A stretch of DNA of 64,000 nt. Origin: Pyrinomonadaceae bacterium. GTDB taxonomy: Bacteria; Acidobacteriota; Blastocatellia; Pyrinomonadales; Pyrinomonadaceae. The stretch covers positions 25,718 to 89,717 of the forward strand of contig DASVQM010000072.1 of NCBI GenBank assembly GCA_036389095.1, read 5' to 3'. Numbering within the stretch: the stretch's first letter is position 1; each line of letters begins with the position of its first letter. Position numbers and translations under genes: made by a program. Positions 2,891-28,059 of this stretch are shown piece by piece. Below the pieces are notes generated by a model. That model saw only the letters and a program-made list of their open reading frames with translations, did not search any database and was not told the DNA's origin.

Positions 2891-3617
2891 TTATTTCCAT
2901 CTCCGCTTAGCCTGCCCTCTCTGCCTGGCCAGACGCGACAGCTTCTTCCAACGCTTCTTTTCCGTAAGTTGGGCGTTGATGTCCTGCTTGCGCGCAACAT
3001 GCTGCAATTCCTTCTGTAGCTTCTCGTAGCTCTCATACCTGGCGGCTTCAATCGTCCCCGCTGCCAGTGACTCTTGAATAGCACACCCGGGTTCGTCCCG
3101 GTGCCGGCAATCGCTGAAGCGGCAATTACGAACCAAAGCTTCGATGTCATCGAATGCGTGTTGAAGACTCTCACTTCCATCCCAGAGGTGCAACTCACGC
3201 ATCCCGGGCGTGTCGAGCACGAGTCCTCCATGTGGCAGGAGAATCAACTCGCGATAGGTTGTCGTGCGCTGGCCTCTCCCATCGTGAGCGCGGATCTCAC
3301 GTACCTTTTGCACGTCGCGTCCGAGCAGGTGATTTATCAGAGTTGATTTCCCGACCCCGGACGAGCCCAGTAGGGCCACGGTCTGCCCGTGTCGGAAATA
3401 TGGCGCAAGCTCGTCCAACCCGTCCTGGCTAACTACGCTGACGATATGGACTGGCACATCCACAGCCACGGTTTGAATCTCCGCGAGCCTCTCTTCAACC
3501 TCTCCGCATAGGTCTGCCCTACTGAGGACGATGACGGGGCTGGCCCCGCTTTCCCAGGCTACAATCAAATAGCGCTCAATCCGACGCACGTCGAAGTCCA
3601 GTGAGGGGGCTTCCTGA
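2891..3617 (-). pseudogene. rsgA: ribosome small-subunit-dependent GTPase RsgA, 5'-truncated (OB-fold domain missing)
   Basis: DRYL-type segment IERYLIVAWESGASPVIVLSRADL, P-loop LLGSSGVGKSTLINHL, RTTTYRELILL, and the C-terminal zinc motif CRFSDCRHRDEPGCA. Homology stops at ...PSLDFDV next to the 3601-3634 palindrome, and no OB-fold is encoded upstream. Confidence 0.8.
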
Positions 3618-3634
3618 TCAGGAAGCCCCCTCAC
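3601..3634. repeat. perfect 34-bp palindrome GTGAGGGGGCTTCCTGA|TCAGGAAGCCCCCTCAC at the rsgA truncation point
   Basis: The sequence equals its own reverse complement. One arm is rsgA coding sequence (..QEAPSL..) and the other is its inverted copy. Confidence 0.9.
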
Positions 3635-3636
3635 TC

Positions 3637-3704
3637 CAGTTACCAACTTTATTGTTGAGCTACCGACTTTATTGTCTAGTTACCAACTTTATTGTCATCA
3701 CACA
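3637..3704 (-). mobile_element. remnant of a Tn7-family transposon end: TGTG tip plus three abutting 20-bp TnsB-type binding-site repeats
   Basis: The minus strand from 3704 reads TGTGTGAT-GACAATAAAGTTGGTAACTA-GACAATAAAGTCGGTAGCTC-AACAATAAAGTTGGTAACTG. This closely resembles Tn7 ends as I recall them (TGTGGGCG-GACAAAATAGTTGGGAACT / GACAATAAAGTCTTAAACT). Confidence 0.7.
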
Positions 3705-3714
3705 TTTTGCGCGA

Positions 3715-3726
3715 CAGGGTCTCAGT
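3715..3726. repeat. left copy of the direct repeat CAGGGTCTCAGT (carries a displaced copy of the pilC stop codon, TCA at 3722-3724)
   Basis: An identical 12-mer lies at 26823-26834. Both copies sit at the AT-rich/GC-rich transitions. Confidence 0.75.
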
Positions 3727-3728
3727 CC

Positions 3729-10969: not shown

Positions 10970-11332
10970 CTCTGACTGAAAGTCTTTACTCTGTTTAATC
11001 ATCTGTCGGATATAGCTTCAATTCCGGTATTCCCGCCGGACATCTCTGAGGTCATAACTAGAAATAAGCTTTCCCTGAGAGCCACTCCTCACAAATGAAT
11101 TTTCCCGTGCGCGTGCCGAAAATGAACACGTTATCCAAGGTACCCATCCCAACCGTCTCGCTGATTAAATCCAGCCACAACATTGCACTTGTAGTGGTTC
11201 ACAAGAGAGGTACCCAACACAAGCCGCCAACATCCATCAGGACAAACCTGACGCCGCCTAGCCGCACCCATCTGAATTGGTCATCCATCTCTAAATCACT
11301 CATTGCTTGAACATCGCCTTTATCGAAGACCT

Positions 11333-13405
11333 TTACATCGCCCACCATGAAATCTCGACCTGTTCAAGAGCAGCGGTCGCGAAATTCCGCACCCTTTCAT
11401 TTGGATCATCTTTGCTGCGTCTGCAAAGCAATTCTCTTATCTTTTCAACGCCGGCGAAGCCGCAAGCCCATAATGCTGCTTCGCGCACTGCCGGATTATT
11501 ATCCTCAACCGCCACCTGTCGCAGGCACTTATTGCCTTCTACACACTGGAGAAAAGCAAGGCAAGCCACGGCTGTTAAACGCGCTTCATAATTCCTTAGC
11601 TCCAGAGCAGGGAAGATGAACCGCGTATCCCGGAGCCAGCCGAGTTGACTGTCAGCCAGCATGGCCTGCAAACAGCATTCATGTCCGCCCCACTTCTTCG
11701 CCGCGTACAGCAGCGCGTCAGTCCGGTCGAACAGGAATTCGGCAGCTAAATGCGGATCTTTTGCAAATCTATTCTGATAGTTGGGATTCGGAATGCGGCG
11801 GATCTCGCCGTATAAAAGCCTGATAAGCTGGTTAGGATCAGTAATATCTTGTGCCAGCGGGTAAAACGGCATTATCACTGGCAGAAGCTCTTCGGCTGTC
11901 CACGCCGCAACGTCTTTTGATACTTCCGATGGAAGATCAAGACCTTTTGATTCTCGCGAGCTAAGCCATTCACGCGTTCTATTGAGGATTCCTTCAACCC
12001 GATCACGAAGCTCCTCCGCATCCCGCCGAGTTGCCGCATCGCCGTACTCACCATTAAGAAGTTGGTCAAGCCCTTGCAATGCATCTTGCGCATCTGCCGC
12101 GATCATTATCGCTCTGCCGATTGCGACTGATGGCAACGCGCAGCCTTCGAGGGCGCATAATTGCTCCTCGGCATTGGCCTCCAGCCAGCGGGATTCAATC
12201 TGGTGCAGACACACAAAGGCGTGGGCATCTCTTACCCCATCAGCGGAATGGTAATAGTATGCGTCGCCATTCACCCTACCCACTTGGTAGACCCGTTGGA
12301 GGACACGCTCATGCCGAGTGCCGTCCCCTCCGTCAATCAGTTCCTTAGAAGCATCCGAGATGATTTGAAAAAGGCTGGATGAGCCGACAGGGTGAAGTGT
12401 ATCGTCCATCTTTATCTCGCTTGATACATCTCTTTGCGTAACCGGCCTGCCGAGCCGCTCGACTGCGCGACGGACGGCTTCACCAATGCGCTCCGCATCA
12501 TTGGCATAAGCATCAATGATGTCGAGCACTTCATCAGGCACATCGCACGGTGCCCAAAGCGACGCATTTTGCCCCGGCCTCTTAATCTTGCGTATCGCCG
12601 CAGCATCGGTTTGGGAAAGCTGGATCATCGCATTGACGAGCAGTTTAGGATTCTTCAAGTTTTCGTGTGGTTGTGGGTCGGAGAGGAGCCGAGTGCGGAC
12701 TTCACCTGTTGAGATGGGTCTAGGCAGGCGATTTTCGGCAGCAGCTTGCCTCAAGTTCTCATTCCACAACTCTCTAAAGGCGTACAGAACTTGATCCAGC
12801 CATGTCAGCGCCTCCGTGGGCATATACTGAGTTGAGTCAAGATCGGAAGGAAGGTATAAATTAGTGCCCTGATTGTCTTTGCGCAGAGGATTGCCTACGA
12901 CTTTTAACTCGCCGGTATCTTTGAGGCTAAGCACGTCATGAGTAATTTCCGCCTCGGACAAGTCAAGTGTTTCCGGGTGTTCGGCTACATACTTCAACAC
13001 GTCATTAACGCGCACGGCACGGTTTAGCAGTGCCACCGTGTCCCTTACTAATTCAAGCACTCGCTGCCTTCGCGACATCTTCGTAGGAAGGTCTCTCGAC
13101 TCCGGGGCGAGAGCATTTACGGAGCCGTAGTAGCGGTTTGCGCCTATTCTACCGGGCGAGAACACAACCTTCCTTACACAGAGCTGATTTAGAACGCTGG
13201 CGACAGTTTGGCTTAAATTCTTGCTGTAGGCCTTTTTAATCCGCTCAATATCTTTCTCCGAAAGAGACAGCGCGGCGATTACTTCGCTGACAGTCGCAAC
13301 TCTAGAGTAAGCGATGTTAGCCACCTCAAGCGCCCGGAGCACGAGCTTGTGCTCGGCTTTAAGCCTTTGGTCAGATTTAGTTGATAGTCTTCTTATCTTC
13401 TCCAT
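11333..13405 (-). CDS. 690-aa transposon-encoded protein: about four winged-helix-like modules plus C-terminal HEAT-like repeats (candidate target selector; not TniQ/TnsD-like by eye)
   Basis: It is the third gene of the tnsB-tnsC operon, 8 nt after the tnsC stop. Repeated HTH-plus-wing-like modules each end in an aromatic hairpin (..GANRYYG, ..GTNLYLP, ..NASLWAP, ..GDAYYYH). The C-terminus has NPAVREAALWACG and DPNERVRNFATAAL, which are HEAT/PBS-lyase-like. No N-terminal Cys/His zinc motif is present. Confidence 0.6.
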   Translation of the reverse strand: MEKIRRLSTKSDQRLKAEHKLVLRALEVANIAYSRVATVSEVIAALSLSEKDIERIKKAYSKNLSQTVASVLNQLCVRKVVFSPGRIGANRYYGSVNALAPESRDLPTKMSRRQRVLELVRDTVALLNRAVRVNDVLKYVAEHPETLDLSEAEITHDVLSLKDTGELKVVGNPLRKDNQGTNLYLPSDLDSTQYMPTEALTWLDQVLYAFRELWNENLRQAAAENRLPRPISTGEVRTRLLSDPQPHENLKNPKLLVNAMIQLSQTDAAAIRKIKRPGQNASLWAPCDVPDEVLDIIDAYANDAERIGEAVRRAVERLGRPVTQRDVSSEIKMDDTLHPVGSSSLFQIISDASKELIDGGDGTRHERVLQRVYQVGRVNGDAYYYHSADGVRDAHAFVCLHQIESRWLEANAEEQLCALEGCALPSVAIGRAIMIAADAQDALQGLDQLLNGEYGDAATRRDAEELRDRVEGILNRTREWLSSRESKGLDLPSEVSKDVAAWTAEELLPVIMPFYPLAQDITDPNQLIRLLYGEIRRIPNPNYQNRFAKDPHLAAEFLFDRTDALLYAAKKWGGHECCLQAMLADSQLGWLRDTRFIFPALELRNYEARLTAVACLAFLQCVEGNKCLRQVAVEDNNPAVREAALWACGFAGVEKIRELLCRRSKDDPNERVRNFATAALEQVEISWWAM

Positions 13406-13413
13406 CTTTCCCT

Positions 13414-14409
13414 CTACTTCTTGTCGCTTGATCCCTTGTCGGACTGCTTCGGATCGCCCTGCTTCTTCTCGTTATGTAACACCTTCTTGTAAGGGCTATA
13501 AGGCTTAGCGGAGTCCCTGAGAGCCTGCATCATGCTCTCGCTAGTCCTCATATATATGGCGCGCAAGAACTCCGCAGTGATCTCACCCTTGGCGTGACTT
13601 AGCCTGTAATCCAACAGTTGGACGAAAGGAGCGATCAGGCCGGGTAAGCCTGAGCACAGTTCATGGATAACTTCCACCTGTTCGCGGTGCCCCTTCTTCT
13701 TGGCGTCCAGAATGGCAAAATACGGGTGTAATTTCGTCAGCAGCGTCCACGTCGCATCAATGTCGTATTGGTCAAAGTAGCACCACTCGTGGATGCGATT
13801 GTGAATTTGCGGGTACTTGATTATCGTGTGAGGCAGATCGTCCATCCCGACGAACACTAGGGTCAGAGTCCACCCTTCGTTTTCGGCGGTGTCGCGGACA
13901 AGATTCATTCCGCGAATCGCGTCCGCCGACAAGCCGCCAGCCTCATCAACGATAATCAACTGGATTCGTTTACGGCGTAGCCCATGGACGAGTTGTGCGG
14001 CGAGCACCTCCGGCGGGTTGCGGATATAGAAACCTTCGTCCATTTGAACGCCGAGGGCAGCTTGATAGAGGCTCCTGATGCCCTTCTTGATCTCATTGCC
14101 GGAACCTTTCACGACCGCGCCGACCTCATAGTGAATCGCCCGGAATGTATCGGGATTGTCCTCATCGAATACCTCGTTGAGATGGTTAGCCATGTAACGC
14201 CCCGTCGTAGTTTTACCGATCCTGCTTCGCCCGTACCAGACGACCAGAGCGCCGCAAGAGTGAACAGAGAGCGTGCGATTGATCATCTCTTTCATCATAG
14301 GCGTAAGGACGATGTCCTTGAGGTCCTTCGGCTTGGCCCTCGGTATTCTGATCCCATCAGCCGTGATGATCGCCCGCTCGGTGTTAATTAAGGTACCCAT
14401 CTTCCCCAC
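13414..14409 (-). CDS. tnsC: AAA+ ATPase of the TnsC/TniB transposition-regulator family
   Basis: Walker A GRSRIGKTT and Walker B LIIVDEAGGL. Its size (331 aa) and its position directly downstream of, and overlapping, the DDE transposase gene also fit. Confidence 0.75.
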   Translation of the reverse strand: MGKMGTLINTERAIITADGIRIPRAKPKDLKDIVLTPMMKEMINRTLSVHSCGALVVWYGRSRIGKTTTGRYMANHLNEVFDEDNPDTFRAIHYEVGAVVKGSGNEIKKGIRSLYQAALGVQMDEGFYIRNPPEVLAAQLVHGLRRKRIQLIIVDEAGGLSADAIRGMNLVRDTAENEGWTLTLVFVGMDDLPHTIIKYPQIHNRIHEWCYFDQYDIDATWTLLTKLHPYFAILDAKKKGHREQVEVIHELCSGLPGLIAPFVQLLDYRLSHAKGEITAEFLRAIYMRTSESMMQALRDSAKPYSPYKKVLHNEKKQGDPKQSDKGSSDKK

Positions 14410-16087
14410 CGTCCTGTCGCTTGAACTCTTCCATTAACCTCTGAATTTCTGCCGCTTTATCCTCCTCTAATGTCTCCATCAGGAATTCCGATTCTTTGCT
14501 TGCCTGCGCCTCTTCGACCCGCCATGCTTCCTCACGCTCGATGCGTTCGGCCTGCTTACGGTCGTTCTCATATACCTCGCGCATATATTCCTTGGTGCGC
14601 TGGATAAGGCCGCGTCGGAACTCGCTGCGCGTGCGCTTGATGTCCACGATGGTGTAGCGCGGGTTTTCGGCCAGCATGTCGAACGCTTCACACAGGAATT
14701 CGCCCGTAGCCGCGCAATAAATCAATACCGAATCCATATCTTCCGGGTTGTAGCGAAGGCAGACCTTGCGCTTCCAATGGTAAGCGAGTTCCGGCGACCA
14801 AAATCTGTGCCTGACGCCGTCAAGCTTGAATTTGATCCCCGTATTCAGCACCGTGCATTCCTTGTCGTACTTGAGAATCAGGAGATTGAGATCGTCCTCG
14901 CTGGCAGGCAGTCGCAGTCGCTTTGTGCTTTCCCAAAACTTTAGCGGCTCGCGTCCCGTCTCGGAGTGCTCGCGCCGGTGATAATCCTTATCAATCCAGC
15001 GGGCTATCTCCTTATCAAGCTGCCGAAGGGTGTAAAACTCGTGAACGCGCTTGAGGGCGGCTTCTTCGGTCACGCCGACGGCGTCCATGTGCCCCGGCAA
15101 AATGCGCAGGCAGCCGGAATCTATGGTTCTGAACATGATCTCGATTTTGCCCTTGGAGTCCGGATGTCTCGGAGGGTCAGGCTCAGGGTTACAGCGTAAA
15201 CCTCTTAGCGTTGCGGCAATCGCGTAGGAGATAAAATCACTTCCCCGGTCGGATTCGAATCGCGTCGGAATACCGCAAAGGATACTGTCCTCTTTCGGAA
15301 GGATGGCGCGGCGGAAGGTGAGTGCGATTACCCAAGAGTCAGGGTATTTGGTCGAGACGACATACGCCATGACGGCGCGGGAGTGTGAGTCAAGTAGGAG
15401 CGTGATATATACTCGGAATGGCCTCCACTCGCCATTGATCTTGACCCTCACCCAAATCTTCAGTGGGCTGTGATCTCCCTGCCAGAGTTCATTCGCGTAA
15501 GTTGAGTTCTCGTAGCGGGTGACCGGTCGTGCCTGTTTGTCCCACTCGCGGATCCCGACTTTACCGTTGCGGGCCAGTTTCAAGCTTTCATCGAGATGAG
15601 CTAGATACTTTTTGACCGAGCTTTCGCATGGTTCAGCGATTTTGCGTTCCCGGCACTCTTCGCAGACCTTCTTCCAGATAGCCCTCGGCCCTGCCGCCTC
15701 GCGAGCGAAGTACCAAGCGAGTGTGATTTTCTTTACCTCGAAGGTGAACACCTTCGCTTCGTATTCCCGACCCCACCGCTTGTCGAGCAAGGCCGGAAAC
15801 CCGCCTTCCTTGAACCTCTTGTATAGATTGCGAGCAGTACGTTCCGTGCGTGAAATCCCAAGGCGTTTGATCGCTTCGCGCGCCCGTACATCGCGATCCA
15901 TCAAATTCACCAGCCCGCAATTCTCAGCATAGATCTGCAACTGCTTATCGCCGAGTTCATCCAGCCTTATCGCTTTGGCGCGAGTTTTATCGTTCGGTTG
16001 ATGGATTACTTCCTGCTCTGTTTGATCCGAAGCTAGTGATTTGGCTTCACGCTTCTTTTTAGTTTTAGGTCTGTTACGCCTTGTCAT
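14384..16087 (-). CDS. tnsB: DDE (rve/Mu-type) transposase of the TnsB/TniA family
   Basis: Catalytic triad contexts are WQGDHSPL, ESDRGSDF and KGKIEIMFRT. It has N-terminal HTH regions and a Mu-transposase-like C-terminal part. ATG 16087 with GGAGGTG upstream is preferred over the ORF-track start at 16261, whose extra 58 aa look non-coding. Confidence 0.8.
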   Translation of the reverse strand: MTRRNRPKTKKKREAKSLASDQTEQEVIHQPNDKTRAKAIRLDELGDKQLQIYAENCGLVNLMDRDVRAREAIKRLGISRTERTARNLYKRFKEGGFPALLDKRWGREYEAKVFTFEVKKITLAWYFAREAAGPRAIWKKVCEECRERKIAEPCESSVKKYLAHLDESLKLARNGKVGIREWDKQARPVTRYENSTYANELWQGDHSPLKIWVRVKINGEWRPFRVYITLLLDSHSRAVMAYVVSTKYPDSWVIALTFRRAILPKEDSILCGIPTRFESDRGSDFISYAIAATLRGLRCNPEPDPPRHPDSKGKIEIMFRTIDSGCLRILPGHMDAVGVTEEAALKRVHEFYTLRQLDKEIARWIDKDYHRREHSETGREPLKFWESTKRLRLPASEDDLNLLILKYDKECTVLNTGIKFKLDGVRHRFWSPELAYHWKRKVCLRYNPEDMDSVLIYCAATGEFLCEAFDMLAENPRYTIVDIKRTRSEFRRGLIQRTKEYMREVYENDRKQAERIEREEAWRVEEAQASKESEFLMETLEEDKAAEIQRLMEEFKRQDGGEDGYLN

Positions 16088-16589
16088 ATCGTAGTCCACA
16101 CCTCCTATGCGAAAACTTTTGGCGATTACCTTGTGCTGATGCCAAGCGGTTGGACTCAAGCCAACAGATTCAGCCTTAAGGCTACAGCTTTGTGTTATAA
16201 ATAAAACAATATGCAATAGATAAAACACTTTGGGCATAAGAGTCCTAAAGTTCGAATACATCTCCTCAACTACCTCCTATCACCGTGCTGACTGTCGAGA
16301 GAAAATTTGCTTGTGAGTGTCGGTTCCTATGGATAGGACTACGGCGATGGCGGGAGACTTACTTAATGATCGGTATTTACTTTCCCTCACTGCCTGACCT
16401 CCTCGCGATTTCTCTCAAACCGCTAACAGTCCCTATTAGGGTCACGGGAACGTACCCTGTCAATGTGTTTTTTTATCGGTATAAACTTACACAAAAAAGA
16501 GCTATGAATTCGCTGTGTTGAGTATGGTTTTAAGACTCGAATTCTCAAATTGACAGTCCAACCGCGATTTACTTGAAGCACAACACTGC

Positions 16590-17237
16590 TTAACCATCCT
16601 TGAGTTCAGGTCCATCCAGATAGTTCAACCGGCGGTAGATCTTTCTTACAAGCTCGACGTCACGAATGCAGTAGTCGGCAATCTCTTGGTGACGGCCCGC
16701 GAGGAAAAGATCGTAAACGGTGCTGCCATCAATCCCATTTTTCTTTGAACTCTCCAGTCCTAAAACTTTAGCCACGTCGTCTAGCTTGATGCGATGTCTC
16801 CAGTGACAGAATTCCCACATCACGTCGAAAACGGGATGCGAACGGAACCGGGCGAAGCACACTTTGAAGCTCGGCTTAATTTGTTTGATCACACTGCGAG
16901 TGCAGATAAACGGGAGATCGAAATCCAATAGGTTGAAACCGATCAGGAGATCGCGACGAGGGTTAAATTCTTTGACTAGCTTCCAGAAGGACCGGAGTGT
17001 CCTAGCCTCGTCAAGATGAAACTCCTTTGTGTTCCGGCTGCGCCCGATTACGCCGCGAAGAGTGATTTCATCATCTTCCTCGACGATCAGGCCGATGCAT
17101 AAGAGCCTGCCGTATGCGCCGTTTAAGGATAATTTGCGGAACTCCTCTGCGTCGGATTGCGACGCACAGTTTTTTATTAGGGGATCGTCGTTATCCGGAG
17201 GGATAGTTTCGACATCGAGGTAGATTTTCTTAAACAT
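16590..17237 (-). CDS. predicted 3'-5' exonuclease related to the PolB exonuclease domain (DEDD/RNase H-like fold)
   Basis: Exo I YLDVET, Exo II FNLLDFDLPF, Exo III YCIRDVELV. Confidence 0.7.
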   Translation of the reverse strand: MFKKIYLDVETIPPDNDDPLIKNCASQSDAEEFRKLSLNGAYGRLLCIGLIVEEDDEITLRGVIGRSRNTKEFHLDEARTLRSFWKLVKEFNPRRDLLIGFNLLDFDLPFICTRSVIKQIKPSFKVCFARFRSHPVFDVMWEFCHWRHRIKLDDVAKVLGLESSKKNGIDGSTVYDLFLAGRHQEIADYCIRDVELVRKIYRRLNYLDGPELKDG

Positions 17238-17428
17238 CTGGACACCTCGACCATTGCTGAGTAGACTTGCTCGGTTTAGCTGCGGATTAACTTTGTTTTA
17301 TACATTGTATGTTGTCGCGTCTATGAAAAGAGGGCGCGCAGCTTAACCTATCTTAGGTTGAATTGCAACAGTTTTTTTAACCTATTTTGGCTTGAGTCGG
17401 AAAGAGGTCGGATTCTCCCGAAATCCTG

Positions 17429-17653
17429 ATGAAATCAGACTTGAGTGGCAAATACGAACAGTTTCAACGCTTGTTGATTCAAGCTAGAGAAGATGCCGGA
17501 TTGTCTCAGCAGGATGTGGCCGACCGTTTGGGCCGCCATCAGACCTACGTGTCTAAATGCGAACGTGGGGAGCGACGCATGGATCTGATTGAATTTCTTG
17601 AGATTGCACGGGCTGTTGGGTTCGACCCGCACAAATTCATAAAAAAGCTTTAG
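17429..17653 (+). CDS. XRE/Cro-CI family helix-turn-helix transcriptional regulator (74 aa)
   Basis: LSQQDVADRLGRHQTYVSKCERGERRMDLIEFLEIARAV. Confidence 0.8.
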   Translation: MKSDLSGKYEQFQRLLIQAREDAGLSQQDVADRLGRHQTYVSKCERGERRMDLIEFLEIARAVGFDPHKFIKKL

Positions 17654-17708
17654 GACATGGTGCTTCATTCATCGGTGGAGGTTCCCGCTGCCGAATTTGC
17701 TTAAATAG

Positions 17709-17747
17709 TAAGAGCGCCGTAGCGGGAGGTTACGGCGCTCTTATTTG
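17709..17747 (+). terminator. intrinsic terminator-like hairpin downstream of the 74-aa XRE gene
   Basis: TAAGAGCGCCGTA-gcgggaggt-TACGGCGCTCTTA followed by TTTG. Confidence 0.55.
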
Positions 17748-17936
17748 CACGGTCCTTTATCTCCGTAAGAAAGGGCCGTGCCCCGCCACGCCCCCCCACC
17801 TATAGCGCGTGGCGGCTCGCGGCACTGTCTGCTCCCCCGCGCAGATGTGCCTGCGAGAGGCAGGCTTCACAGGGTAGGCTTTCTCAATCAAGAGGCTCTA
17901 ATTTTTAAGAGTGGAACAACCATTGGTGCCTTCTAG

Positions 17937-18752
17937 CTACTGTATATAGACAAGTCGCCATCCGTTATCGTAACGCTGAAAATACGCGATAGCTTTTCTA
18001 ATAGCGGTATTTATTTCTGACGTGTCAGCCAAGGGCGTTCGTTGAAGCAAACCAATTGGCTGCTTAAGCCCTTGCTGGAGCTTCGGCGGGAGGCTCTTGT
18101 ATGCCGCGCTGGTCGGATCGAATGCCTCCCCAACAGAAGTAGGTATGGCGCGCCAAGTAAATTCCGCTTGTGCCCCCCCGTTTTGAGTTTTGATAATCCC
18201 GGTTACTTCAATCACTCGTTTCGTGAAGAGTGGGATGGTCCGCCCATCGCTTCCTGCTTCTTTTTTTCCCTTCTCGGTAAGATTGACTCGAATAAGGAAC
18301 TTCCACGGCGCTAGGCTGTCTTTGCCTAGTGGGGTGCGTGCAGTTGAGCCGTCGGGCCTCTCTACTTTGAATTCCGGCGCTTTAATGGTTTTTGGCTTTT
18401 GGATGACCTGAGCCGTGATTTCAATCAGGCCCATGTGTTGAAGGATCGCCAACGCAGGGTGGTTACCAAGAAATGCCTCTACAGCGCGTGGCTGCGCTAC
18501 GGACTCATCCTCGTCATCTGATTGAGCGGGGACGGAGACATTCTCGTATTCATCCTTCAATGCTACTGCTGCCGGTTCCTTAAACTCTTTAGCTTGGCTA
18601 ATTAAATTTGAAGCGCGTGAGCGTGTCAGGTCTTGTGATTGAGCACAATTCGATGTTAGCAGAATGAGAGCAAAAGTAGCTAAAACAACACTGGTTGGTT
18701 GATGAGGCTGACAGCTTTTGATTACGGTCATAAATGGTAAGGACATAATCAA
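17937..18752 (-). CDS. secreted or lipoprotein-like hypothetical protein (271 aa)
   Basis: N-terminal hydrophobic signal (VVLATFALILLTSNCAQS). No recognisable catalytic motif. Confidence 0.55.
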   Translation of the reverse strand: MIMSLPFMTVIKSCQPHQPTSVVLATFALILLTSNCAQSQDLTRSRASNLISQAKEFKEPAAVALKDEYENVSVPAQSDDEDESVAQPRAVEAFLGNHPALAILQHMGLIEITAQVIQKPKTIKAPEFKVERPDGSTARTPLGKDSLAPWKFLIRVNLTEKGKKEAGSDGRTIPLFTKRVIEVTGIIKTQNGGAQAEFTWRAIPTSVGEAFDPTSAAYKSLPPKLQQGLKQPIGLLQRTPLADTSEINTAIRKAIAYFQRYDNGWRLVYIQ

Positions 18753-18990
18753 TCTCCTAGCGGCATGTGATTTGGTGCGATAAGTAATACTGACTTTAAG
18801 TTAATCGTCTATTGTTGGCTCATTTTTGTAGCGGCATCCACCACACTTTGGTATAAAGTGTTGCAATCCTCTTTGAAGAGAACGTGCAGCACCTTATGCG
18901 CTTGGCGGCTCGACTAAATCGCCCCGGATGATGTGCGTCGCTGTGAAGCCTTTAATCGAGCTTCCGGCGATTCAACACTTTCTCAACGGG

Positions 18991-19040
18991 CTAAATACAA
19001 CTGTATTTAGCAGCCATATATTAAATACAGTTGTATTTAG
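18991..19040. promoter_or_regulatory. two 20-bp palindromic operator-like sites spaced 30 bp apart, upstream of the 111-aa XRE gene
   Basis: CTAAATACAACTGTATTTAG (18991-19010) and TTAAATACAGTTGTATTTAG (19021-19040). Confidence 0.6.
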
Positions 19041-19091
19041 ATGCAAGGGCGGCTGGAAGATTTTTAATCCATCAGGAGGAAAGCTTTCCTG

Positions 19092-19427
19092 ATGAGACGA
19101 ACTTCCAGACAGCGTCCGGCTCGACTTGCCGAGAAACTTTTGTATATCCGCGCCACGCTAGGTCTTTCACAGAATGAGATGATCCGACGGTTGGGATTTG
19201 AAAATGAACTCACACAAGGCCATATTTCAGCTTATGAAAGGCAGAAGGAGAATCGCATACCACCGCCCGGCATTTTGCTAGCCTACGCGCGCGCGATCTC
19301 GACCACAGGTGGAGGCGAGTTTCTGGAAGCTTTGATTGATGATGAAATGGAATTACCTAATTTGTTTCCAGCTAGTCCTAGTAAAGTTATTAAGACTAAA
19401 CATCCTGCTGGAACTAAAAAATGTTAA
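19092..19427 (+). CDS. XRE-family helix-turn-helix regulator (111 aa)
   Basis: LGLSQNEMIRRLGFENELTQGHISAYERQKENRIPPPGILLAYARAI. Confidence 0.75.
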   Translation: MRRTSRQRPARLAEKLLYIRATLGLSQNEMIRRLGFENELTQGHISAYERQKENRIPPPGILLAYARAISTTGGGEFLEALIDDEMELPNLFPASPSKVIKTKHPAGTKKC

Positions 19428-19837
19428 TTACGCGATGATCGCTTTATTAAATATTGCTTGAAGTTTGTCAGAGCTTACAGCGGTATTCATTCGGATGCGA
19501 CCCGAAGCGATTAACCATCTTCTGCCTTCGCCAGCAGCGGATTTGGAACGGGAAACTAGCCGGAGGTCGCATGCGAGTTAATCCCGCTATAAAGCTTGTT
19601 TTGTTAGCTGAATACTAGCAATGTTTGCATGGGAGGCATAATACTTACTTTTGAGATATGTGGCTCTTTGAATAAAGGCTTCTGGTAAGACTCAATCTCT
19701 CTCGCGAGAGTAGACATCTAACGCTTGAATTAACCCGCGCCGAGTATAAAGCATTCAAGCCAAAAGGAAGACAACGATGAAAGGAATGCTGTTGAGCGGT
19801 CGGGTTGAATGAGTTGTTATGCTTCGCGTTCGAGGAA

Positions 19838-20467
19838 TCATATCCACCCTCGTGTGTATTTCGCGTAATTATATTCATCAATAAGCTTGAGAAGTGTCTT
19901 ACCCATTGCTTTAGGATTTAGACTAGATTGTAGCCTTTCTGCCATGTCTTTCGACTTCCTGAAGAATACAAGATACTTCTCCGCAGGATTAGAAGAATAC
20001 GCACATCCATAAGCCTGCGCAATTTTATAGTCCCACAGAGGAAAGAAATCTGGAGCGAGCAGATGTAATGCTTTCGCCACTGCTACCGGACTCTTTTGAC
20101 CTTTCTTCTTTCCATCATTGATTCGGAGGGCATTGAGAAAATGCTGAAACAGATGCTCAATTGCTTTGTCATCGGCAGAGGTGTAATTCGAGATGCTTGA
20201 GTTGCGGTACTTGTCGAGTAAAGGAAGGTTCTTCGATATACAATCTTCAAGCTTATCGAAATCAAAGATGCCATACCTGTAGAACGCATGATTCCAAGTT
20301 AGCAATAACACGCCCAAACTATCTGCGATTTCAGCAGACTTTCCCCAGAAATGGTCAACGAGGAAAGTTGCTGTTCTATACATGGAATCTCGCTTCTCAC
20401 GCTTTTGAAAAGCAAGATACCCTTTCTTGAAGTCCACAGAAATTGGAGTGCTCATCGTTTTATTCAT
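19838..20467 (-). CDS. hypothetical protein downstream of res (about 210 aa)
   Basis: Coding-looking ORF. ATG 20467 (MNKTMSTP...) is preferred over the longer track start at 20614, which adds a Cys/Arg-rich leader. No motif recognised. Confidence 0.45.
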   Translation of the reverse strand: MNKTMSTPISVDFKKGYLAFQKREKRDSMYRTATFLVDHFWGKSAEIADSLGVLLLTWNHAFYRYGIFDFDKLEDCISKNLPLLDKYRNSSISNYTSADDKAIEHLFQHFLNALRINDGKKKGQKSPVAVAKALHLLAPDFFPLWDYKIAQAYGCAYSSNPAEKYLVFFRKSKDMAERLQSSLNPKAMGKTLLKLIDEYNYAKYTRGWI

Positions 20468-26146: not shown

Positions 26147-26234
26147 AAAATGAAACGCACTTGTCAAAGAAATGAAACACACCGGGCGAAAGAAATGAAA
26201 CGCACTTGCTGAAAGAAATGGAACATACTTGGCT
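26147..26234. repeat. four contiguous 22-23-bp direct repeats (consensus AAAGAAATGRAACRCACTTG), with a fifth copy at 26349-26365
   Basis: The ATGAAAC/ATGGAAC cores start at 26150, 26172, 26195, 26218 and 26352, all in the same orientation. Confidence 0.85.
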
Positions 26235-26508
26235 AAGTAGAGCAAAAAGGGATTTGAGCAGCCGGACAAGATTATCTGGCTGCTTATGATTGATCGGAAG
26301 TAGAGTACTCATCTTAATTCTGCTCCCATAGTTACAAAGAGATAGATGGAAATGGAACGCACTTTATTAAAGGGCAGTGAACTGAACTTCATTAGTAGAT
26401 TTGGAGTGAGCCAAACCATCTACCTTGTTTGGTTACCTGATCTGCGCCATTACATGTCTTTAGTTATGATTAAACTTAACATTTCAGAATACTTACTCCC
26501 AGTTTTCG

Positions 26509-26530
26509 GTAGAATGGTTGTTGCTGTGTA
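26509..26530. repeat. 22-bp direct repeat GTAGAATGGTTGTTGCTGTGTA, copy 1 (copy 2 at 26610-26631)
   Basis: Exact 22-mer present twice, 101 bp apart. Confidence 0.85.
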
Positions 26531-26716
26531 TGCCCTATGATTTACCCTTTCCCGTCTTGTAAACACTTCTTTCTTTTGAGCTTAAAGCTATTGCGCCTGA
26601 TCTGGCTTAGTAGAATGGTTGTTGCTGTGTACGACCCTTCAAAGCACAGATAACAGTCTGATTGGCCTTTGTCTGATTCGGAATAGACTGATCCATCAAA
26701 TTCCACTTAAACAATT

Positions 26717-26756: not shown

Positions 26757-26824
26757 GGTAAATTACCAATACCTGAAACGGAAAAGTATCAGTAACCGAA
26801 ACGGTAAATTAACTTTACCTCGCA
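26756..26824 (-). repeat. right-end array: three tandem 23-bp units (putative transposase binding sites) ending in the CA tip
   Basis: CGGTAAATTACCAATACCTGAAA, CGGAAAAGTATCAGTAACCGAAA and CGGTAAATTAACTTTACCTCGCA are pairwise 17/23 identical. Confidence 0.7.
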
Positions 26825-26834
26825 GGGTCTCAGT
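26823..26834. repeat. right copy of the direct repeat CAGGGTCTCAGT, overlapping the pilC stop codon
   Basis: Identical to 3715-3726. Confidence 0.75.
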
Positions 26835-28059
26835 GGCCCTGCGACAGCTTGCCGATGAGGGTGAAGAGCGGCAGGTACATGGCGATCACGATGGAGCCGA
26901 TGGTGACGCCGAGGAAGCCTATCAGGATGGGCTCGATGAGGGTCAGGAGATTGGCGATGGCCGCATCAACCTCTTGCTCGTAGAAGTCTGCGATCTTGCC
27001 GAGCATGGCGTCCAAGGCTCCGGTCTGTTCGCCGATGCCGATCATCTGCGCCACCATGCTCGGGAAGACTTCAGTCGCCTTTAACGGATCAACGAAGCTT
27101 TCACCGCGCTCGACCCCGGCGCGTACTTTCATGATCGCCTGTTCGATGACGACGTTGCCGGCGGTGCGCGCCGTGATGTCCAAGGATTGCAGGATGGGCA
27201 CGCCGGAGGAGAGCAGGGTCGCCAGCGTGCGCGAGAAGCGCGCGACCGCTATCTTGCGCATGATGCCGCCGAAGATGGGGAGCTTCAAGATGATCGTATC
27301 GAGGATGCGACGCCCGCCCGGCGTCTTGTAGTAGTAGCGCAGGGCGACGACGATTCCGATCAGGGCGACGAGAATGGAGAGACCGCCCCACCCGGCGAGG
27401 AATTCGCTGACGCCGACGACGATGCGCGTCGGCAGGGGCAGCAATTCCCCGGGGCCAAGCAGTCCAAGGAAGATGTTCTGAAACTGCGGGATGACGACCA
27501 CCATGATGACGGCTATCGCGCCTATCGCCATCAGGATCACCGCCGCCGGATAGATGAGGGCCGACATGATGTCGCGCTTGAGCTTGACGATCTTTTCGAT
27601 GAAGGTCGAGAGACGCTGCAAGATGAGGTCGAGAATACCTCCGGTCTCGCCAGCCTCGACCATGTTCGTGTAGAGCTGATCGAAGACTTTCGGATGACGC
27701 GCCATCGCCGCCGCCAGCGTCGAGCCTTCTTCGACATCCTGGCGCACCTGCATCAGGACTTGCTGGAAGTGTTTGTTATCCTGCTGTTGGCCCAGGATGT
27801 CCAAACATTGCACGAGCGGGAGACCGGCATCAATCATCACAGAGAACTGGCGCGTGAAGATGGAGAGGGCTTTGGCCTTGACCTTCTTGCGCCCGCCGAT
27901 CTTTGGAATCCCGACCTCGCGTCCCTTCTCTTTGACGGAGGTCAGCGTGACCTGCTCGCGGCGAAGGATCTGGCGCAAAGCTTCACGATTGTCTGCGACG
28001 CGCTCGCCGACCACGATCTCGTTGAGTCGGTTGCGGCCTTTGAAGACGTAAGTGGGCAT
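26830..28059 (-). CDS. pilC: type IV pilus assembly platform protein PilC (GspF family)
   Basis: 409 aa with the duplicated T2SSF domain pattern, three TM regions, and pilB/pilT neighbours. Confidence 0.9.
   Translation of the reverse strand: MPTYVFKGRNRLNEIVVGERVADNREALRQILRREQVTLTSVKEKGREVGIPKIGGRKKVKAKALSIFTRQFSVMIDAGLPLVQCLDILGQQQDNKHFQQVLMQVRQDVEEGSTLAAAMARHPKVFDQLYTNMVEAGETGGILDLILQRLSTFIEKIVKLKRDIMSALIYPAAVILMAIGAIAVIMVVVIPQFQNIFLGLLGPGELLPLPTRIVVGVSEFLAGWGGLSILVALIGIVVALRYYYKTPGGRRILDTIILKLPIFGGIMRKIAVARFSRTLATLLSSGVPILQSLDITARTAGNVVIEQAIMKVRAGVERGESFVDPLKATEVFPSMVAQMIGIGEQTGALDAMLGKIADFYEQEVDAAIANLLTLIEPILIGFLGVTIGSIVIAMYLPLFTLIGKLSQGH

Follow-up and report, generated by a model that had tools for sequence, protein, structure and literature searches.

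Remnant of a Tn7-type right end downstream of pilC in Pyrinomonadaceae, at a candidate recurrent landing site

The pilC locus, the displaced remnant and the intervening island

The stretch of DNA analysed here (the window, 64 kb from a Pyrinomonadaceae MAG of the phylum Acidobacteriota) carries pilC on its minus strand. A short array of repeats, followed by a palindrome and a fragment of rsgA, is separated from the 3′ end of pilC by a low-GC island. The features of the locus, from right to left, are as follows.

26830–28059, minus strand: pilC, type IV pilus platform protein of 409 aa, whose 3′ end marks the proposed landing site
26823–26834, minus strand: right copy of a 12-bp direct repeat, which holds the functional pilC stop codon (26830–26832)
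3727–26822, minus strand: 23.1-kb low-GC island with CCTG..CAGG termini and 23-bp terminal repeats (GGTWA..TTTWCCG)
3715–3726, minus strand: left copy of the 12-bp direct repeat, ACTGAGACCCTG, with a displaced pilC stop codon; the two copies flank the island
3705–3721, minus strand: original pilC-downstream spacer of 17 nt, GACCCTGTCGCGCAAAA on the minus strand (17 nt in L037, 19 nt in L005)
3697–3704, minus strand: 8-bp terminal tip of a Tn7-type right end, TGTGTGAT, with the tip at 3704; the body would extend toward lower coordinates
3677–3696, minus strand: predicted TnsB-type binding-site repeat 1, GACAATAAAGTTGGTAACTA, sharing 15–16 of 19 positions with Tn7R/Tn7L sites
3657–3676, minus strand: predicted TnsB-type binding-site repeat 2, GACAATAAAGTCGGTAGCTC, from the repeat search and comparison with Tn7 sites
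3637–3656, minus strand: predicted TnsB-type binding-site repeat 3, AACAATAAAGTTGGTAACTG; likeness to the L005 end ceases at 3637
3600–3635: perfect palindrome of 36 bp (arms 18+18, zero spacer) that separates the rsgA fragment from the end remnant, one base from repeat 3
2891–3598, minus strand: 5′-truncated rsgA without ~125 N-terminal residues; its alignment with homologues of 358 aa begins near residue 126

From 3704 to 3637 on the minus strand, the array consists of an 8-bp tip and three abutting 20-bp repeats, exactly as the original prediction had described it. The three repeats are the only copies in the window (19-mer search with up to 3 mismatches; 0 expected from 100 shuffles), and no further copy occurs in the 10 kb to its left, on which grounds a host intergenic repeat was rejected. 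Two sigma-70-like matches lie inside the repeats and point inward, a number that barely exceeds the shuffle expectation of 0.9. Only one end of the lost element survives in the window. No tRNA or known RNA was found at the landing site.

Ten nucleotides separate the tip from the left copy of the direct repeat. This copy carries a displaced pilC stop codon (TGA at 3722–3724 on the minus strand), and removal of 3727–26822 in silico leaves the tip 17 nt past the pilC stop codon; both observations reproduce the geometry that had been predicted. A candidate copy of the target-site duplication made by the lost element is CAAAA (3705–3709), the last 5 nt of the spacer. On the other side of the stop codon, conservation over the final 75 nt of pilC amounts to 92% in a set of 9 genomes. 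In glmS, TnsD reads a coding target that is likewise conserved (PMC2918618). The conserved 3′ end of pilC would be compatible with recognition by a TnsD-like selector.

The stump meets the palindrome and the rsgA fragment after 68 bp, and an adjacent, inward-reading tnsA-tnsB-tnsC is absent. A tblastn search with TnsA–E of Tn7 and of the Acidithiobacillus caldus element detected no tns homology to the left of the stump, in the window or in the 10 kb beyond it, and the 13.4 kb to the left contain no left-end sites. The 10 kb left of the window are occupied by ordinary genes (P450, histidine kinase, antiporter and DinB). A body or left end located further to the left was rejected, as neither tns homology nor sites occur in the 10 kb beyond the window, and the claim that the body has mostly been deleted stands. 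Judged by its sequence, the stump is a remnant, an immobile fossil without evident present-day function.

The palindrome measures 36 bp rather than the 34 bp first given. It is the sole long palindrome in the window, with a hairpin energy of −19.9 kcal/mol (z = −7). Three origins were considered for it and set aside. Native rsgA sequence is unsupported, since native rsgA homology begins at 3598 when the 358-aa homologues and their DNA are compared; an intrinsic terminator would require a T tail, which is missing; and a repeat family does not fit a single copy in the window and none in viral contigs.

The rsgA fragment had been recognized as truncated, and indeed its homology to the 358-aa proteins begins only near residue 126, and its match to family models only near position 135 of 347. 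It is also displaced, as the full-length rsgA in MAG BP_21 lies in a different context on another contig. An annotated ORF of 251 aa (2891–3646, minus strand) starts with a TTG at 3646 inside repeat 3 and runs through the palindrome into the rsgA fragment. Its product corresponds to RsgA without the OB-fold domain, and the sigma-70-like matches in the repeats share its direction. A truncated GTPase might be expressed from this ORF.

The island is bounded by a direct repeat of 8–12 bp that overlaps the pilC stop codon. Its mobility module encodes an RNase H-like exonuclease, an rve/Mu-C transposase, an AAA_22 ATPase and a HEAT-repeat protein of ~690 aa, and its cargo includes a type III restriction-modification system and a TIR protein. 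The transposase is 28–32% identical to Tn552/Tn5053-type enzymes, and the island shares with these elements the order of an rve plus Mu-C transposase followed by an AAA ATPase, as well as multiple terminal repeats. It differs from them in having a HEAT-repeat protein of 660–720 aa in the place of TniQ, CCTG termini, and a direct repeat of 8–12 bp rather than 5–7 bp. No TniQ or resolvase Pfam match was found among the scanned island ORFs; the HEAT protein sits at the target-selector position. The transposase-ATPase-HEAT module is conserved in relatives L040–L042, and no pilC was found within 10 kb of island-transposase homologues (the L036 and L041 sequences do not overlap).

A reading of the stump as a part of the island was rejected: the tip points toward the island, which ends in CCTG termini of its own and whose 23-bp repeat is a different one. 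The island lies between pilC and the intact 17-nt spacer; thus, its insertion was most likely later than that of the Tn7-type element. In relatives, CCTG-type ends are found at +32 (L010) and +95 (L037) from pilC, and this variation makes targeting of pilC by the island less certain. The original prediction had two elements landing within 17 bp of the same gene end. This is borne out for the stump; the island is not a canonical Tn7 element and its targeting of pilC is less clear.

Several repeats occur near the pilC-proximal end of the island. Five copies of a 22–24-nt repeat (GAAATGAAACGCACTTG...) are located just inside this end, at 26147–26372, where they overlap and precede a 104-aa ORF, followed by a 247-aa ORF of uncharacterised product. 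These putative sites look like regulator- or iteron-type binding sites. Two 27-nt direct repeats (26509–26535 and 26610–26636), 93% identical and 101 nt apart, are present in non-coding sequence in the same region.

Tn7-family identity of the remnant

Both Tn7 ends used for comparison were taken from plasmid R721, and the Tn7R reference sequence is found at 100% identity in at least 60 plasmid records. Each repeat of the stump matches 14–16 of the 19 positions of the genuine Tn7 TnsB-binding sites of R721. Over the terminal 28 nt, the stump agrees with Tn7L at 21 positions and with Tn7R at 20, where about 22 had been estimated for Tn7L. The alignment with Tn7 ends that had been proposed as a check gave a global score of 17 against Tn7R, compared to a maximum of 13 in 2000 shuffles.

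Tn7R contains four abutting sites with a 20-bp period, while Tn7L contains three dispersed sites. The repeats of the stump start straight after the tip, in direct orientation and with exact 20-bp spacing, and their register is that of the Tn7R sites. Since the sites abut at a 20-bp period as in Tn7R, and those of Tn7L are dispersed, the stump has the architecture of a right end, and not of the Tn7L end to which it had been likened.

The tip TGTGTGAT aligns with the TGTGGGCG tip of Tn7R and Tn7L and with the tips in L005, L037, L003 and A. caldus; the terminal 5′-TGT inside the 8-bp segment is present in the stump and aligned with the tips of Tn7 and six other ends. The stump as a whole aligns in register with Tn7R and with A. 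caldus, Salmonella and Bacillus plasmid ends, each having TGT, five bases and three 20-bp sites. A sensitive search of annotated plasmids identified an end on the megaplasmid of A. caldus SM-1 (NC_015851.1) that is ~80% identical over 56 nt and in register. This end lies directly upstream of tnsA, ~45 nt ahead of tnsA-tnsB-tnsC-tnsD-tnsE. The A. caldus element is complete and plasmid-borne; the copy in the window has been reduced to a stump, on a chromosome of another phylum.

On the basis of the agreement with TnsB sites and the common register with Tn7R and the tns-adjacent A. caldus end, the predicted Tn7-family assignment is upheld, and we consider the identification of 3637–3704 as the right-end terminus of a transposon of the prototypic Tn7 clade to be secure. 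The stump shares with prototypic Tn7 the TGT tip, the 8-nt terminal segment and the abutting TnsB sites of 20-bp period, with 14–16 of 19 positions in common per site. As in Tn7, the right end is turned toward the 3′ end of a conserved gene, which it follows at a short fixed distance: 17–19 nt for pilC, and 25 nt for glmS in L003, where the end family is the same. Unlike Tn7, the stump adjoins pilC, not glmS, and has kept three sites, compared to four in Tn7R; tns genes and a left end are missing from the window, and no 5-bp duplication can be demonstrated there.

Transposon ends downstream of pilC in related genomes

Genomes, one per species, were scanned with a degenerate pattern consisting of the tip and two intact sites, which gave 5 matches. 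The same kind of scan gave 3 matches in metagenomes, all at glmS in gammaproteobacteria, and 0 in viral sequences. The pilC neighbourhoods of relatives were found by means of the PilC protein, which is 89–97% identical in close relatives. The upstream gene order (queE/queC, pilB, pilT, pilC) is conserved, and each close relative has different genes past pilC.

The end type of the stump is found at pilC in three genomes only: the window, L005 (Acidobacteriota MAG BP_21) and L037. Positions 1337–1405 of L005 are 92.8% identical to 3705–3637 of the window (blastn), and this end is located at +19 from the stop codon of the pilC orthologue, in the same orientation. In L037, the end is located at +17, again in the orientation of the window stump. 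The distance is fixed and the orientation is single: +17 (window, island removed), +17 (L037) and +19 (L005), with the right end facing pilC. The 68-bp ends of these genomes are 88–93% identical, compared to 53–67% for the third codon positions of pilC and 35–53% for the 17–19-nt spacers, which favours independent insertions. Selection acting on the ends themselves is another possible cause of their higher conservation.

The copy in L037 has two ends. Its left end, at 19744–19892, contains three spaced sites as in Tn7L, so that the element spans 8.6 kb (11248–19892). The flanking pentamers differ (ATCTG and ACTGA), with no matching 5-bp duplication. The element carries no transposition genes and encodes a TIR-NACHT protein, an 889-aa HEAT protein and two uncharacterised proteins. 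A CCTG-type end is nested ~10 nt past its third right-end site.

A different end, consisting of TGTGGAAG followed by repeats of ~20 nt, is found at +20 in L013 and +19 in L016. In L010, a 10-nt stump of a TGTGGAAG-type tip at +22 is followed by a CCTG-type end like that of the window island. Close relatives with 96–97% identical PilC lack the end type of the stump and have the other type at the same place. The spacers of L037 and L016 are alike (CCCCTTGGAGGGATCTG and CCCCTTGAGGGGATGTGTG), and the end families are different. The search for the TGTGGAAG-type end in annotated plasmids gave no match. In the more distant P0031 species, the site is empty, with pilC, a terminator and an NHL gene followed by pilS-pilR-pilA.

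Further structures were seen in these regions. The TGTGGAAG-type end of L016 belongs to a gene-less, two-ended mini element of 659 bp (11250–11908) that lies 19 nt after pilC and has perfect 22-bp terminal inverted repeats (TGTGGAAGAAAAATAATTAGCG). A TGTGGAAG-type end also occurs in L037 near 19930, as TGTAGAAAAAAAATAATTAGCG. Right after pilC in L036 (11235–11300), there are three units of ~21–24 nt, GTCGGATTCG[A/T]A..CTTGCCG, one of which is found at the same place in L010; these units may represent a fourth kind of transposon end. The 10 kb past pilC in L010, L036 and L037 encode NACHT-FGE-sulfatase, YukD-ThiF-JAB, kinase/ORC-Cdc6-like, Mrr-type, HerA-like and TIR-NACHT proteins.

No tns genes were found within 10 kb downstream of pilC at 17 loci in eight genomes, so that the tns-bearing elements sought at this position, and with them an autonomous copy, were not encountered there; none lie within 6.6 kb past the end in L005 or in the 8.6-kb element of L037.

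With the stump type at +17 and +19, the TGTGGAAG type at +19 to +22 and an empty site elsewhere, the recurrent use of the pilC 3′ end that had been predicted agrees with the data, and comparative geometry supports repeated landing of Tn7-type elements at this gene end. The variable sequences past pilC are rich in defence-like genes and point to a hotspot. On balance, we lean towards a broader interpretation, in which the pilC 3′ end would be an undescribed attTn7-like site in Pyrinomonadaceae that has received independent arrivals of at least two end families of Tn7 architecture (the GACAATAAAGT and TGTGGAAG types), with the CCTG type as a third nearby. It would then form a layered, defence-rich hotspot, and the GACAATAAAGT-type family would have undergone a switch of selector from glmS to pilC.

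History of the locus and relation to known systems

We consider it likely that a right end of the Tn7 clade was inserted 17 nt past pilC, that the body was lost, and that the island was inserted later. By analogy with Tn7, a selector of the TnsD/TniQ type would have bound the conserved last codons of pilC and recruited TnsC and TnsAB. Cut-and-paste transposition by TnsAB would then have set the element 17 nt past the pilC stop codon with its right end toward pilC, in keeping with a short, constant distance and a single orientation. As no autonomous copy with tnsABC and a selector was found at pilC, we infer the part played by a selector from this analogy. A rearrangement would have removed everything inboard of the third site, leaving a junction made of the 36-bp palindrome and the displaced, 5′-truncated rsgA. 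The 23.1-kb Tn552/Tn5053-like transposon would have entered later, between pilC and the remnant, pushing the latter 23 kb away. The three predicted TnsB sites of the stump could still provide target immunity against its own family, and a later arrival with different ends would fit such immunity. An immobile mini-element with intact TnsB sites confers target immunity, and 70 bp of Tn7R serve as the right end in mini-elements (PMC11014353).

Other histories of the stump are less probable. The 68 bp could be a retained functional module, serving in immunity, as a promoter or as a replacement for the pilC terminator, or one terminus of an element that is non-autonomous, is mobilised in trans and has its left end beyond the examined sequence. 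Their length is close to that of Tn7R in mini-Tn7, immobile mini-elements confer immunity (PMC11014353), and mini elements of 170 bp in gammaproteobacteria bear such ends. The inward-reading sigma-70-like matches and the annotated ORF that begins in repeat 3 and continues into the rsgA fragment are also in line with this explanation. However, the 13.4 kb to the left contain no left-end sites, there is no terminator-like T tail, and the promoter matches number 2 against 0.9 expected from shuffles; a retained module or mobilised end is therefore unlikely. Somewhat less likely still is a single ancient insertion after pilC, inherited vertically in Pyrinomonadaceae and decayed in a lineage-specific manner, without recurrent targeting by the end family of the stump. 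All three genomes retain ~68–78 bp without adjoining tns genes, a similarity that partly reflects the search, since the pattern of two intact sites under-samples degraded copies, and the end positions differ by 2 nt only. This history is difficult to reconcile with ends that are far more similar than the spacers and the third positions of pilC, with another end type at the same place in relatives whose PilC is 96–97% identical, and with the similar spacers of L037 and L016 that carry different end families.

An assembly chimera at the junction of remnant, palindrome and rsgA, with the transposon intact elsewhere, would account for a perfect palindrome with zero spacer, which is unusual and can arise at misjoins, and for a rsgA fragment away from the native rsgA locus. 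We regard it as very improbable, given that the junction is identical in two assemblies (a 255.9-kb JGI contig and a 97-kb ENA MEGAHIT contig, L020), which were possibly built from the same reads. A host intergenic repeat or chance likeness with no link to transposons could draw on the AT-rich simplicity of the core, AATAAAGT, and on nothing beyond it. Three copies were found against 0 expected, the array is in register with ends that adjoin tnsA, and the same TGT-tipped array occurs at glmS in other phyla; this reading is already effectively refuted.

The kind of element is well known; the host phylum, the landing site and the layered hotspot are new. No co-occurrence of pilC with Tn7-like attachment sites was found in the literature searched, and pilC is absent from those parts of the text and supplements of two large Tn7 surveys that were searched. 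It is also absent from the att sites given in a recent review (glmS, comM, yhiN, parE, tRNA genes and plasmid res sites). Within these sources, the earlier statement that pilC was not known as such a site is correct. The value of Tn7-type elements, in nature and as tools, is that they insert at a single site that is safe and can be predicted. With every att site that is added, a further selector protein able to recognise DNA is implied, and a pilC hotspot would be a convenient starting point for cargo mining in soil Acidobacteriota, which have been little studied.

The accumulation of multiple or decayed elements at an att site is shared with Tn6022/AbaR and other Tn7-like islands of Acinetobacter. 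In the Acinetobacter islands, remnants of an ancestral insertion are still found past nrdB, and immunity of the target is tied to TnsB sites (PMC11014353). The pilC site differs in host phylum, att gene and end sequences, and in the layering of at least two to three unrelated end families.

The closest counterparts at glmS are mini elements of ~170 bp in Denitrificimonas caeni and Pseudomonas MAGs (L003 and L006), whose tip and first two sites (TGTGGCATGACAATAAAGTCGGTAACTTGACAATAAAGTTGGTAACT) are 87–92% identical to the stump. They differ from it in being two-ended and at the classical glmS site, a location that implies a target selector other than the one that would have placed the Acidobacteriota copies at pilC. 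If this is true, the GACAATAAAGT-type family, found at glmS in gammaproteobacteria, has a version with its selector switched to pilC. The Denitrificimonas element (L003, 1885–2087) is located 25 nt past glmS and is accompanied by a partial additional end, and that of the Pseudomonas MAG (L006, 6046–6235) is inserted in tnsA of a different Tn7-like element at glmS.
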